Source of the DNA: a virus
Lineage: Duplodnaviria; Heunggongvirae; Uroviricota; Caudoviricetes
Virus record (IMG/VR): IMGVR_UViG_2541047121_000026
DNA length: 8,011 nt
Direction: 5' to 3' (one strand)
Part shown: piece after piece, positions 3,001-8,011 of the stretch
How the letters are laid out: each line of letters starts with the position of its first letter
Numbering within the stretch: position 1 is the first letter of the stretch
Made by a program: the position numbers

Positions 3001-6000
3001 CGAACGAAGTAATGAACATGTGGCTTCAGTCGCTGGTGAATAATGAACGCGATGAATCAACCGCAAGATTAATATTTGCCGTTTCTGAATTACTGGATAG
3101 TTCAACCAGCAAAATAGAGAGCATATCAGAGAAGATTAACGGCTTATCAGGTCACGCTATCGGAGAATAAAAATAATGAAACTTAAATATCCTGGCTTAA
3201 CTGCCAGCGGCAAAACTCGCACTAAATTCATGTGCGGGGATATTTACCGCGATAAGTACGGCGGCACGGTAATGATTAAGGGCGTGGAGGAACGGCGCGT
3301 AACTTACCGCCGTGAAGGCTACGAATATGATTGCGTTATGCCTGTTTATCAGTTCAACCGTGATTTTTCTCTGGTACAGGCAGCGCCCCGCAGTAAGCCA
3401 ACCAGCAGGGAGAAAGCACGCGCCAATATTCAGGAAATAAAAAAGATGCTTAACGTATTCAGGGGTAAGAAATGAAACTGGCACCGAACGTAAAAAAACA
3501 GCCACGCGGAATAAAACACAAAGACACAGAGGTGATTATTTTCGCGGGTAGTGATGCGTGGGCACATGCAAAACAGTGGCAGGAGCAGGACGGCCCCGCA
3601 TCCGGCGATAATGTGCCTCCTGTGTGGCTTGGGCCAAATCAGCTTGCCGAACTTTATGCACTGCAAATTGTTCCTGATGGAAAAAAACGCGTAAGGCTGT
3701 ACCAGGCAGGAGAACTGGACTTGGTGGAGACCAAAAAGATTGGTCAGAAGCTGGCGGCGGCAGGCGTACAGGATGCAAAATTTTACCCCGAAGGAATGCA
3801 CGGTCAGAAGTGTGAAAACTGGCGGCGCTATCTGAATGCTGAGCGTGAAAATATTGCCGCAGGGCTTACCATGCCGGAGCAGAAAAATACGCAACTGGCA
3901 CAAATGGCAGACAGTGAGCGCGCACAGATGCTTGCTGGTCGATTTGATGGCGTTTGTGTACATCCTGAAAGTGAAATCGTTCACGTATGGCGCGGCGGGG
4001 TATGGTGTCCGGTCAGCACAATGGAACTTAGCCGCGAAATGGTGGCGATCTATTCAGAGCACAGGGCCACTTTCAGCAAACGCGTGATCAATAACGCCGT
4101 TGAAGCGTTAAAAGTTATTGCCGAACCAATGGGGGAGCCGTCCGGCGATTTGCTGCCGTTCGCCAATGGTGCACTTGACCTGAAAACGGGGGAATTTTCC
4201 CCGCACACGCCGGAGAACTGGATCACCACGCACAACGGCATTGAGTACACGCCACCAGCACCAGGGGAGAACATTCGCGACAACGCGCCAAACTTTCATA
4301 AATGGCTTGAGCACGCAGCCGGAAAAGACCCGCGCAAGATGATGCGTATATGTGCCGCGCTGTACATGATTATGGCGAACCGGTACGACTGGCAGATGTT
4401 TATTGAGGCCACCGGAGACGGCGGGAGCGGTAAAAGTACATTCACACACATAGCCAGCCTTCTGGCAGGGAAACAGAACACCGTAAGCGCGGAGATGACG
4501 TCACTCGATGATGCAGGAGGGCGCGCGCAGGTTGTCGGGAGTCGTCTTATCGTCCTGGCTGACCAGCCGAAATATACAGGCGAAGGAACGGGCATCAAGA
4601 AAATCACGGGCGGCGACCCCGTGGAAATTAACCCGAAATATGAAAAGCGTTTCACGGCGGTAATCAGGGCGGTGGTGCTGGCGACCAACAACAACCCGAT
4701 GATATTCACCGAACGGGCCGGAGGCGTGGCACGTCGTCGGGTTATTTTTCGCTTTGACAATATCGTTAGCGAGGCAGAAAAGGACAAGGATTTGCCGGAG
4801 AAGGTCGCGGCTGAAATCCCTGTGATTATCCGCCGCTTGCTGGCTAATTTTGCTGACCCTGAAAAGGCACGGGCTTTATTACTGGAACAGCGCGACGGTG
4901 ATGAAGCACTGGCGATAAAGCAACAGACAGATCCGGTTATTGAGTTTTGCCAGTTCCTGAATTTTCTGGAGGAAGCGCGCGGCCTGATGATGGGTGGCGG
5001 TGGCGATTCCGTGAAGTACACGACCAGAAACAGCCTTTACCGCGTCTATCTGGCGTTTATGGCATACGCAGGAAGAAGCAAGCCGCTAAACGTGGCTGAT
5101 TTCAGCAAGGCCATGAAGCCAGCGGCGAAAGTTTACGGACATGAATATATTACGCGAAAAGTTAAGGGAGTAACGCAGACCAACGCAATTACAACGGATG
5201 ATTGTGACGCGTTTTTATAATTTTTTGTAAAAGCCCTCTACCCCATCTACCTGAATGAAATAAACGCATATTATTCAACATGATAAGTGGGTAGAGGGAT
5301 AGGTAGAAGGCTAATAAAACCCCTCTACCCCCTCTACCATGATTAAGGTCGTTTGTGAGGGGCGGGTAGAGGATGGGTAGAGGGCCACGAAAAGTCCTCT
5401 ACCCATCTGAAAGCCGCGCCATTACTGACCTGAAAGATGATTAGGTAGAAGAGGTAGAGGAGGTGCACCACAACCTAAAACTTTTTAAACGAGGGGGGTA
5501 AAAATAAATGTGCATACATCAAAATCACTTAACAAACATGCCGACCGAAAACATGAATCAGGGGCGACAAATGACCAAAATGCGCAGAGACAGAACACAG
5601 CAAAAATATAAAGCGTTAGACATGACAGAGCTTTCCCTAAAGGTGGCAATCAAAGTTATAGACCGCCACACACGGGAAGGATACGCGAAGGAGAATCCCG
5701 AACTAATAAGCGCATTCATGACCACGGCGGCGGCAAACTTTGCCACGCTGACAGAGCGGGAGATTGCAGAAGCGGAACAGGTAACAACCATCAACGTTAA
5801 AAGCACTGGAGAATAACCGAAGGAGTGAGCACATAGCCGGAGCAATCCGGCTTTTTTTCGATCTCTCATATCTTAAAAAATGGTTGATTAATGATAATCT
5901 ATCGAAAATACTGATTATGCGATGATAAGTATCAGGAGGAAACAAAGTGGAAGAGATAAAGCAAAGCGCTACCGTGATGATTGATCACGAGATCCTAAAC

Positions 6001-8011
6001 GAGCTTAAAAAACTTCAATTCGATGTTATTCGCCGGATGAATGAAGCTGGTATATACGGCAGAGCCGCCACGCCAACAATAGGTCATCTTGCACGTGTGC
6101 TGTTACGCGAAAGACTGGGCATTGCAACAGGTGAGGCATAACAAATGGCTATCACAGAACGCGAGGCAAGCATCATTAAGGCCATTGGCGAGGAAACAAG
6201 AGACACTATAGCGCCATTGATGGAAAAGATCGCAGAGCTTGAGACACGAATAAACAAGCTGAGTAATGAAGTTGAAGGCCTGATCTCGTTACTCGGTGAG
6301 CAATGACATGGGGGGGGGAGTGTTCCGGCCGGAAAGTCGATCACCCTGGACACCGCCCCCCGTCTCATTCGTAGAAAATTTTGCTTTTCAAAAAAGTTAC
6401 ACGAAAAGTTACACCCCCTCAAAACGAGGTTTTTGCATGGCATTAACGACCAAAAAAAAGCGGTTTGCTGATGCGTTATCAAGGGGCGCAAATCCCACGG
6501 AAGCCGCTATACATGCGGGATACAGCGAAAAGACCGCAAGGGTTAAAGGCTGGCAGCTATCCAACGATCCTGAGGTGAAAAAGTATCTTAAGGCTGTAAC
6601 TTCTGATGTAACTTTTCAGGTTACAAAACCGAAAAAAGTTACAAAGAAAGTTACCGAAAAAGTTACACCGGAACGGGCATCAATTAACACCATTGAGATG
6701 ATGGATAACGGCCTACCCGACCCCATCAAAGCAATGGGCAGGATACTGATTGACAACATGGACACAGATCCAAAACTGGCTTTAGATGCCGCGTTTAAGC
6801 TGGCCCAGTTCACCCACCGCAAGATCGGCAGCATTGGGAAAAAAGAGGTTAAAAAACTCAATGCCGCTAGTGTCTACTCAAATCGGTTCCCCATCCCTAA
6901 GCCACCAACAGACTTAAAACACTGAGGTAGCGAACTATGAGCGAATACATCACAGACCCTATTGATGTACTCACGGAAATCATGAACGACAAGCAGCAGT
7001 CGACCGAAATACGGTTACAGGCCGCCGCTGTTCTGATGCCATATTTTCACGAAACACTAAACCCGTGCTTCCAGGAGGAGGAAGAAGATGATCTGTAAAA
7101 ACATGAAAGGCGTGTCAGCAGTTCGCGCCGCCAGCGTGCTGGCATCGTGTAAATTTAGCCATGCTGACGCTATAGAGATGACGAAAAGAAATGATCCGGC
7201 AGTATCGAAATTTCTTGAAAAATCCATCGTCAACAGAATGACTACGGATAACATGCCGTCGCTGGTGGCAGAGCCGATAGTAAGAGAGCTTGGCGAGTAT
7301 ATTTTTTCGCAGTCTGTACCAGGCAAGCTAATCAGCAGCGCGCTTAATCTTCCGTTTGGCGCAAAATTGCATTCAATATCAGGCAAGGGTAGTAAATGGC
7401 TTAAAGAAGCCGAAGAAATCCCTGTCAAAGAGGGAGAAGTAAACGAAAGTGCGCTAAAATTGTGCAAACTTGGCGCTATTGTGATGCTGAATAACGAGCT
7501 AATCAAATTTAGCACCCCTGGTACAAATTCAGCGATCAGAGACTTGATCACATCGGAATCGGTGAAAGAAATAGATAAAAAATTTCTTTCCAGTGATCAG
7601 GAGGTGGCTGGCGTATCCCCTGAGGGCGTGCTTAATGGTGCTGATGAGGCCGAAAACTTCATAGAGATTTTCAAAAAGCACATAGCGAACGGTAACACGC
7701 TTTCCACGTCGTCGCTAATATTGCCCGTAGAAAACGCCTTACAGCTTACTGATGCTGAGTTCTGGCAGATAGAGCTTTTGAGAATACCGGTAATTGTGAG
7801 CGAACAGGCGGATCGCATGATGCTGATAGACGCTCAAAAGCTGATTATTAACGTTGAAGCCACGGTTATAACCCCAACTGATGAGGCGGTAATAAAAACC
7901 GAATCAGGGGCGGTTAGCCTTTTCCAGAATGACGCTACAGCGTTCAGGGCAATCACCTATTGCGGATGGCAAAAACTCGATAAGGCCGTCACCGTTCTGG
8001 CGAAAAGCTGA

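Follow-up and report, generated by a model that had tools for sequence, protein, structure and literature searches.

SaPI satellites of Staphylococcus aureus carry an operon I, a late unit that encodes several small proteins (CpmA, CpmB, PtiA, PtiB, PtiM and Ppi) 5' of the satellite terS gene. Their targets are capsid assembly, late transcription or terminase of the helper, and CpmB resembles the helper scaffold. Here we describe an 8,011-bp stretch of DNA (the window; IMG/VR record IMGVR_UViG_2541047121_000026) that by its sequence is a satellite of Escherichia coli O157:H7 of the phage-inducible chromosomal island (PICI) type, and in which three small open reading frames (ORF1, ORF2 and ORF3) lie between the replication origin and a satellite terS (Table 1). 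An earlier note, made from the sequence alone, had drawn the analogy with proteins of the SaPI kind, since in both systems small satellite proteins are encoded just before satellite terS. In sequence and in fold, the ORFs of the window show no likeness to the operon I proteins, and the helper would be a lambdoid phage of Gram-negative bacteria with an HNH-type cos site. Unlike CpmB with its likeness to the helper scaffold, ORF3 resembles a portal-adjacent protein, and the first gene of the late unit is predicted to encode a ribbon-helix-helix (RHH) protein.

Two other kinds of satellite can be compared with the window. Two reports describe SaPIbov5-type cos satellites with a capsid homologue (Ccm), phi12 and phiSLT as helpers, and HNH-dependent cleavage of cos (PMC5052747, PMC8569155). 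SaPIbov5 resembles the window satellite in combining a copy of the helper cos with an HK97-fold capsid homologue, and its helper uses HNH, TerS and TerL. The elements of E. coli and Hafnia differ from SaPIbov5 in having their own TerS and GTTACAC repeats instead of the helper GTTAAC; helper-type repeats are found only in the TerS-less versions from Serratia and from a metagenomic satellite (L041). The ORF2-ORF3 pair is without a SaPIbov5 counterpart.

PICIs of the EcCICFT073 or Rpp type share with the window the order int, alpA, (Bro), primase, ori and late genes, and an ORF1 homologue stands directly after ori in one such island (L007). These elements need a lambdoid phage with cos as their helper (PMC6092414, PMC6739421). 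They are without terS and redirect the helper TerS by means of Rpp, a protein of 144-153 amino acids (aa) for which a crystal structure, that of RppC, has been reported (PMC6739421). In contrast, the window encodes no Rpp-like protein and has terS together with a different type of cos (3' overhang, HNH phages). A search for an Rpp match of ORF1, ORF2, ORF3 or the 162-aa TerS returned no PDB chain of this kind at E <= 10, the presence of the RppC chain in the searched copy not being confirmed, and the sizes of the four proteins are wrong for Rpp.

Read from its sequence, the interval behind the origin spans the boundary between two PICI satellite modules, a replication side that includes ORF1 and a late/packaging cassette that starts at a terminator. 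In this PICI cassette a putative RHH gene stands together with a fragment-like homologue of a gene from the helper head module, a copy of an HNH-type cos, and a TerS of its own. Our overall best explanation, to which we give a probability of about 45%, is that ORF1 serves replication, whereas the insulated cassette encodes an RHH regulator (ORF2) and a protein that docks on the helper head or portal (ORF3) in front of the copied cos and the satellite TerS. What the sequence shows is anatomy, homologies and signatures of selection; the activities in this explanation, namely the DNA binding of ORF2 and its target, the partner of ORF3 and the role of ORF1, are inferred.

ORF3 and its relation to portal protein B

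The earlier note had picked out a 53-aa coiled-coil ORF tightly coupled to the 64-aa ORF2, and this ORF3 is indeed present. Its ATG follows the ORF2 stop codon after three bases, GGTGAGG stands eight bases upstream, and PGAP annotates the gene in RefSeq (WP_001018605.1). The heptad positions L25, I29, L32, I36, L39, V43, L46 and L50 are in 4-3-4-3 spacing. PDB searches by sequence or profile gave GCN4-type coiled-coil matches and nothing meaningful. Homologues in Hafnia, Serratia and L041 are 41-56% identical to ORF3, and the C-terminus, EVEGLISLLGE(Q/K), is invariant among the satellites of four lineages. Within E. coli ORF3 varies little (6 variable columns), and scans of metagenomes and IMG/VR with ORF3 recovered only close E. 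coli relatives.

Over its N-terminal ~28 residues, ORF3 shares homology with the beginning of a protein of Stx-type phages named "portal protein B". A hidden Markov model (HMM) of the ORF3 family, built from four satellite sequences, scored 24.8 bits against the N-terminus of portal protein B, compared with a best score of 8.7 among 5,000 shuffles of matched composition. No other match occurred when the head-tail region of Stx2a phage 1447 (L034; 16 kb) was translated in six frames. BLASTP found 13 identities in 23 positions at the N-terminus, and across the first ~53 residues of portal protein B the identity is 31% in the same heptad register. Weak PHROG matches for three members of the ORF3 family include phrog_1289 and phrog_8767, both of which are portal protein B families. 

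Portal protein B of phage 1447 (BAT32423) is a 407-aa protein encoded at L034 7803-9026, immediately 3' of the true portal gene (BAT32422), with which it overlaps by ATGA. It is not a Pfam portal; a coiled coil at the N-terminus is followed by four ~45-aa repeats and, at the C-terminus, by a CBM5/12-like domain. Besides the two families just named, the C-terminal half of phrog_2271 corresponds to this protein, and PHROG 2271 includes fused versions of 859 aa. We found portal protein B in 97 phage records, largely the same Stx1a, Stx2c and PPompW phages that hold the TerS homologue. ORF3 differs from the 407-aa phage protein in being the N-terminal segment alone and in having a C-terminal motif of its own that is invariant. 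ORF3 always accompanies the capsid homologue and cos, even in the satellites without TerS (Serratia, L041). It is likely that ORF3 acts at the head or the portal in a hijacking role. The more specific proposal, that ORF3 mimics a docking helix of the portal-associated helper protein and, in concert with the truncated capsid homologue and with timing by an RHH protein, opens a new route of portal or capsid hijack, we regard as doubtful.

The fragment nature of ORF3 bears on a different explanation, in which the chief task of ORF2, ORF3 or both would be to interfere with the helper. Here ORF2 would repress a late promoter of the helper and ORF3 would occupy the docking site of portal protein B, as an N-terminal segment is what could be expected of a dominant-negative fragment. 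PICIs commonly carry interference genes after ori (PMC6739421), and the PLE protein CapR, which acts against the capsid gene of the helper, is a precedent for the repressor (PMC10111431). However, there is no likeness to the known interference proteins (Rpp, Ppi, Pti, CpmA/B), searches of PDB and PADLOC came back empty, and no helper promoter motif was identified. Furthermore, the C-terminus that is invariant among satellites differs from the phage protein, which points to a partner on the satellite side. Interference with the helper is improbable on this evidence, somewhat more so than the docking-helix proposal.

Two other assignments for ORF3 were rejected. Several NCBI records of ORF3 homologues carry the name "antitermination protein NusG", which looks like a propagated misannotation: the NGN and KOW domains of NusG (about 180 aa) are absent from the 53-aa ORF3, and Pfam gave only chance-level coiled-coil matches. 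An internal scaffold like CpmB of the SaPIs, a small helical dimer in which the C-terminus imitates that of the helper scaffold, was discarded as well, since ORF3 has no significant likeness to the helper fusion of protease, delta and major capsid protein (MCP; best E 7.4) and matches phage proteins only at the N-terminus of portal protein B.

The cassette boundary, ORF1 and ORF2

The strong GNRA-loop terminator of the earlier note is confirmed as a hairpin with a GCAA loop and U7. A terminator scan predicts it from the sequence as an intrinsic terminator, that is, a GC-rich hairpin followed by a U-tract. Its folding energy is -12.5 kcal/mol (z = -4.15), none of 200 shuffles folds as well, and among 15 E. 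coli variants none of its 25 columns varies. The terminator had been read as the end of the ORF1 gene. However, homology between the window and another locus (L009) starts exactly at the 5' edge of the terminator, while the sequence upstream in L009 (ORF1-ssb-perC-like) is unrelated. Because the homology breaks at this edge, we assign the terminator to the downstream cassette and not to ORF1. Hafnia, Serratia and the metagenomic satellites L040 and L041 have a hairpin of different sequence and a T-run at the same position, according to scan and fold for the first two and to a reading of the alignment by eye for the last two. The terminator forms the 5' boundary of the late/packaging cassette and would act as its insulator.

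On the other side of this boundary lies ORF1, described earlier as the gene of a basic protein of 102 or 81 aa. The long form (5508-5816) has 102 aa, and an internal ATG at 5571 gives the 81-aa form that RefSeq/PGAP annotates. PHROG 1231 (phrog_1231) matches residues 22-99 with E 1.8e-46, all 35 homologues (35/35) begin at the equivalent of M22, and the upstream ATG at 5508 is not conserved. Since RefSeq, PHROG 1231 and the 35 homologues all favour the start at 5571, we take the 81-aa form to be the real ORF1. The gene is real, then, but its 81-aa product is only mildly basic overall (pI 8.0, 13 K+R versus 12 D+E), with the basic residues in a variable N-terminal tail. Homologues of ORF1 form 168 clusters, and a 36-sequence alignment (A1) has 18 invariant columns. 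An AlphaFold2 (AF2) model shows a helical hairpin (pLDDT 72) with uninformative structural neighbours, and PDB sequence and profile searches with ORF1 gave nothing meaningful.

The gene order around ORF1 homologues places this family next to replication genes. The homologue is the first gene after ori in the OI-51/EcCICFT073-like island (L007), in PICIs embedded in helpers (L035-L037) and in L009, and in all of these its stop codon overlaps the start of a satellite ssb gene. Homologues sit 3' of either P4-type primases or RepA helicases. SSB has been placed in the replication zone of PICIs (PMC10111431). Because ORF1 is usually translationally coupled to satellite ssb, we assign it to replication, which it most likely serves, rather than packaging. 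When 5,426 complete E. coli genomes were searched, 1,187 matched part of our query, most of them over ORF1 alone (query 265-503). This distribution and the overlap with ssb elsewhere remove ORF1 from the packaging-adjacent set to which the earlier note had assigned it. The idea that the three ORFs are candidates for packaging or late regulation holds in so far as ORF3 is related to a protein of the helper head module; ORF1 lies outside the packaging unit.

ORF2 is the GTG-initiated 64-aa ORF with a consensus AGGAGG Shine-Dalgarno sequence that had been reported before. This gene is under strong purifying selection. Two E. coli variants differ by 18.5 synonymous versus 6.5 non-synonymous differences (dN/dS 0.08), and the variable columns among 15 variants are distributed over the three codon positions as 8/1/20. 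An exhaustive HMMER search with ORF2 found six proteins in all at E <= 0.001, three of which are small relatives of 70-80 aa, all from satellites of the same kind. The AF2 model, computed from a seven-sequence alignment (pLDDT 83.7), consists of an extended N-terminal segment and two helices (residues 14-33 and 45-57), and so has the RHH topology of a beta-strand, helix A and helix B within about 45 residues. Judged by eye, the N-terminal TVMIDHEILNELKKL fits the strand-to-helix-A pattern of CopG-type RHH proteins. Foldseek against BFVD gave no match for ORF2 at E < 1, and tblastn of ORF2 against phages returned nothing.

RHH proteins are obligate dimers that place a two-stranded antiparallel sheet in the major groove and recognise repeated operator half-sites. 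They include the regulators Arc and Mnt of P22, CopG, the N-domains of NikR and TraM, and the antitoxins ParD and MazE. Like these regulators, the predicted ORF2 protein is small, has a strand-helix-helix order with a hydrophobic-alternating N-terminal strand that leads straight into helix A, and is encoded by the first gene of the unit that it would regulate. On the strength of the model, ORF2 is likely an RHH-like DNA-binding protein. Since it is the first gene behind an insulated promoter, it is probably a transcriptional regulator of the cassette. A 75-aa protein with an RHH-like pattern (NIRFPNQMIEQINIAL..., by eye) is encoded next to the HNH gene and cos of phage 1447 (L034 1085-1312, minus strand); it has no detectable sequence similarity to ORF2.

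With RHH antitoxins in mind, ORF2 and ORF3 could also be cargo, as a toxin-antitoxin-like or other addiction or defence pair of an RHH antitoxin and a small effector. This possibility is very remote, because ORF3 is an acidic 53-aa coiled coil without likeness to a toxin family and is homologous to a phage head-module protein, because PADLOC gave only a chance-level match to LmuB and no defence system, and because the pair stands in every case at the front of morphogenesis genes rather than in the accessory region. Even less credence is due to the suggestion that one or more of the three ORFs are non-functional remnants or chance ORFs in regulatory DNA. This would fit ORFs that are very short and have no family annotation, and the 6 variable columns of ORF3 in E. 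coli. It is contradicted by the dN/dS of ORF2 and its third-position bias, by the identity and invariant C-terminus of ORF3 in Hafnia, Serratia and L041, by the occurrence of ORF1 in more than 1,100 genomes with its 18 invariant columns in 36 sequences, and by the conservation of Shine-Dalgarno sequences and coupling. The earlier note had made its proposal depend on conservation in related elements; ORF1, ORF2 and ORF3 are all genuine conserved satellite genes, and every feature of that note is present at or near the place where it had been put.

The AT-rich region between the terminator and ORF2 (5859-5946) has a GC content of 29.5%, compared with 47.2% for the window, in keeping with its earlier description as promoter-like. 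It contains a weak sigma-70-like site that we recognised by eye (Table 1). The positional equivalent in Hafnia, TTTACA-N17-AATACT, matches the consensus in 9/12 positions, and comparable hexamers are visible by eye at the same position of Serratia, L040 and L041 in a five-way alignment. The promoter-like pairs of the relatives read TTGATT, TTGATC, TTGTTG or TTTACA, N17 and AAYAMT, and lie ~35-40 nt 5' of the first start codon (by eye). In five diverged relatives, ORF2 stands behind a terminator and a promoter-like region. We consider the site a candidate promoter that is supported by position and architecture rather than by sequence statistics. TGAT(T/A)A repeats at 5885, 5892, 5912 and 5923 flank the -10-like hexamer as candidate operator elements without statistical support, and TGATCA palindromes occur, equally without statistical support, in the upstream regions of Serratia and L040. 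An exact 9-nt repeat, ATGATAAGT, is present at 5280-5288 in the ori field and at 5922-5930 between the -10-like hexamer and the ORF2 Shine-Dalgarno sequence. A related string, TATGCAATGATA, is common to an E. coli variant of the L006 type and Serratia and may be due to chance (p about 0.09).

The cos copy, neighbouring genes and relatives of the cassette

The earlier reading of this region had missed cos. Positions 6307-6436 of the window align with the HNH-terS spacer of Stx2a phage 1447, the shared elements being poly-G, CGATC, GGACACCGCCCCCC, CTCTCA and AGAAAA. For the Stx1 phage Lys8385Vzw, PhageTerm gave 3' cohesive ends with cos = CGCCCCCCCT (PMC7946995). The record of this phage ends with ...CGCCCCCCCT and starts with CTCACGCAG; in a longer reading it ends with ...GGACACCGCCCCCCCT and begins with CTCACGCAGAG. 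The window has CGCCCCCCGT, which agrees in 9/10 bases with the 10-nt cohesive end CGCCCCCCCT and is embedded in a block of ~70 nt that can be aligned to the phage spacer, as in a cos of the HNH-type lambdoid phages (Stx1 Lys8385Vzw-like). All relatives have a single copy of the cos motif per locus, and the E. coli variant L012 carries the phage-type version of the spacer segment. The spacer between ORF3 and terS is, by its sequence, a putative cos site copied from HNH-type Stx lambdoid phages. As an RNA this spacer does not fold better than shuffles (z -1.38), and we therefore gave up the idea of a structured RNA and read it as a site in the DNA; Rfam, searched at permissive E-values, gave no match within 5200-6600.

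Table 1. Positions of the features discussed in the text, in window coordinates.
Feature	Position	Strand	Description
P4-type primase gene	3472-5220		domains D5_N, DUF5906, Pox_D5 (Pfam)
Replication origin iterons	5228-5464		GGTAGAG(G) in both orientations; directly 3' of primase; repeat families D1-D10, inverted pairs I1-I16
ORF1	5571-5816	+	81 aa; conserved post-ori gene of enterobacterial PICIs
Intrinsic terminator (predicted)	5835-5859	+	hairpin 5835-5852 (7-bp stem AGCCGGA/TCCGGCU, 5 GC pairs), GCAA loop, U7
Weak sigma-70 promoter-like site	5884-5912	+	TTGATT-N17-AATACT; 8/12 consensus match, by eye, inside the AT-rich region
ORF2	5947-6141	+	64 aa, GTG start; AGGAGG Shine-Dalgarno at 5934-5939, seven bases upstream; first cassette gene
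ORF3	6145-6306	+	53 aa, acidic (pI 4.5) coiled coil; translationally coupled to ORF2
cos-like site (putative)	6310-6375		poly-G 6310-6318, CGATC, GGACACCGCCCCCC, cohesive-end equivalent CGCCCCCCGT at 6354-6363
Two direct AAAAGTTACAC repeats	6392-6414	+	between cos and terS; candidate satellite-TerS binding sites (cosB-like)
Satellite terS	6437-6925	+	162 aa; Pfam Terminase_2; phrog_641
53-aa acidic ORF	6937-7098	+	like central TerS (phrog_641 positions 89-125, E 3.5e-7); kept in Hafnia and L040
Truncated HK97-fold capsid homologue	7088-8011	+	307 aa; Pfam Phage_capsid; runs to the final base of the window

The poly-G tract just 3' of the ORF3 stop codon has 7-11 G among E. coli isolates and 13 G in Hafnia, a variation that may be real slippage or a homopolymer sequencing error. 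A 209-aa ORF that starts from GTG 6296 in frame with terS (6296-6925) was rejected, since it crosses this tract of varying length. Between cos and terS, phages and TerS-less satellites have GTTAAC repeats where the TerS-encoding E. coli satellite has its two AAAAGTTACAC repeats; only 1 of 73 columns varies in 6364-6436. This exchange suggests that the TerS recognition site has changed.

The TerS of the satellite and that of Stx1a/Stx2-converting phages share 46% identity (tblastn); a scan of genome contigs with a TerS alignment found two irrelevant loci only. The 53-aa ORF that follows terS may derive from a piece of TerS and act on the assembly of terminase. The capsid homologue aligns to residues 291-625 of the 645-aa protease-MCP fusion of the helper (BAT32420), is without the protease and the delta/scaffold part, and matches the major head protein of Stx2a phage 1447 with BLASTP E 3e-20. 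Such a capsid homologue without protease and scaffold part presents a Ccm-like situation.

Besides the three small ORFs, terS, the capsid homologue and the 53-aa ORF, the window encodes a tyrosine integrase, AlpA (Pfam Phage_AlpA), a DUF4222 protein and a P4/D5-type primase. A comparison over 1,201 bases found the window 100% identical to an island in the chromosome of E. coli O157:H7 strain 7.1_Anguil. In O157:H7 this island of ~9 kb is inserted between cspD/yljB and clpS. It has the layout of a Gram-negative PICI, with an inward-facing tyrosine integrase, alpA, and a primase followed by ori iterons, all co-oriented. Its size is within the limit of about 10-20 kb, its chromosomal insertion is site-specific, and lysis and tail genes are absent; terS and the capsid homologue are its only virion genes. 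The same architecture has been described for Gram-negative PICIs (PMC6092414, PMC10111431).

A sibling satellite inserted at tRNA-Pro/yejM carries the same cassette (L042 6237-8674) in E. coli O103:H11 strain RM8385, which is also the source of phage Lys8385Vzw. RM8385 satellite and Lys8385Vzw are a candidate natural satellite-helper pair. Together with this co-residence, the homology of cos, TerS, capsid and ORF3 to Stx-type phages makes these phages candidate helpers on which the satellite would depend. 

The order of the cassette is terminator, weak promoter-like site, ORF2, ORF3, cos, terS, 53-aa ORF and truncated capsid homologue. P4-type primase, RepA or AAA_25 replicases precede its versions, which come from E. 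coli, Hafnia, Serratia and metagenomes. At tRNA-Pro of E. coli the same cassette follows a RepA replicase. In Hafnia it follows an AAA_25 replicase, and a gene of the small family phrog_4934 comes first, before ORF3. In the Serratia satellite (L030) homologues of ORF2 and ORF3 are followed by a tape-measure protein of 798 aa, cos and the capsid homologue, and in L041 ORF2 and ORF3 are followed directly by cos and the capsid homologue. The L040 version consists of ORF2, a full portal gene, a cos-like site, a TerS-like gene, the 53-aa ORF and the capsid homologue. Its whole portal gene (L040 5881-7146), 59% identical to the portal of Stx phages, occupies the ORF3 slot between the ORF2 homologue and cos. 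The tape-measure gene of Serratia (L030 7407-9803; phrog_2854, E 1.5e-170) replaces terS, with phage-type GTTAAC repeats beside cos, and suggests that some satellites may alter tail length. The head of the cassette is present in 220 of 5,426 complete E. coli genomes, always at full length, and the hosts listed for it are mainly O157:H7, O55:H7, O103, O111 and O26.

The ORF2-ORF3 pair, cos and the capsid homologue are among the most constant parts of the cassette, ORF2 being replaced in Hafnia and ORF3 in L040. With cos so close by, the pair might form an accessory complex for packaging, made of specificity factors rather than transcription regulators. On the side of cos that faces ORF3, the RHH protein of such a complex would bind DNA, either as an architectural factor in the manner of cosQ or IHF or as a blocker of the helper terminase, and ORF3 would form the bridge to terminase or portal. 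However, the adjacency of pair and cos is not conserved, as a 2.4-kb tape-measure gene (Serratia) or a portal gene (L040) intervenes. The conserved position of the pair is right after terminator and promoter, and no repeat is common to the promoter region and the flank of cos. We consider a complex of this type unlikely.

Proposed mechanism and possible meaning for Stx phages

Several observations weigh against our preferred explanation of a replication gene followed by an insulated, RHH-regulated hijacking cassette. The likeness of ORF3 to portal protein B spans only about 28 residues, and database-wide its matches are weak (tblastn against all phages, E = 9; PHROG, E about 0.005 beside other coiled-coil matches). 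ORF2 belongs to no curated RHH family, as neither single-sequence nor profile searches found a match in Pfam, NCBIfam, PHROG or PDB, and the loop between its two helices is longer than usual, at 11 residues, of which N32, G35 and G38 are invariant. In both respects it is unlike the RHH regulators. For the earlier suggestion that the 64-aa protein may bind DNA, the strand-helix-helix model counts in favour and the missing RHH family or PDB match counts against. In Hafnia, the first gene of the cassette (65 aa) is from the different family phrog_4934; its homology to ORF2 could not be demonstrated, with a hhalign probability of only 23%. The sigma-70 scan of the AT-rich region found no site at threshold, and local alignment of the upstream regions across genera for a common operator motif was not significant (p about 0.09-0.6). 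Finally, the tie between ORF1 and replication is one of gene order only.

In the mechanism that we propose, early transcription from the alpA-primase operon would end at the terminator, whereby the cassette is insulated. The weak promoter TTGATT-N17-AATACT would then drive ORF2, ORF3, cos, terS, the 53-aa ORF and the capsid homologue. ORF2 as an RHH protein may bind the TGAT-rich promoter region and, by this autoregulation, set the level or timing of cassette expression. ORF3, presumably descended from the N-terminal segment of the portal-adjacent portal protein B of the helper, would be made in step with ORF2 and dock on head or portal components of the helper alongside the truncated capsid homologue. 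Docking could either adapt helper components to the satellite capsid protein or disturb completion of the helper head. Satellite TerS at its own GTTACAC repeats would bring the HNH protein and TerL of the helper to the satellite cos for cutting and packaging.

The likely helpers, judged by sequence, are HNH-cos lambdoid phages with stx1a, stx2a and stx2c in enterohaemorrhagic E. coli (EHEC) of serogroups O157, O26, O103 and O111. Three proteins labelled "hypothetical" or "NusG" gain working assignments, and RM8385 offers a ready natural pair of satellite and helper. If the docking-helix proposal for ORF3 is true, the swappable slots of the cassette (ORF3 or portal; TerS or tape-measure) would mark a modular platform for "late-gene capture" with a regulator of its own at the front. 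By seizing the head assembly and cos cleavage of its helper, a satellite could change the spread of an Stx phage and of the toxin gene. The hijack route, if true, would let satellites of ~9 kb parasitise Stx1a/Stx2-converting phages in EHEC and so alter the yield of Stx phage.

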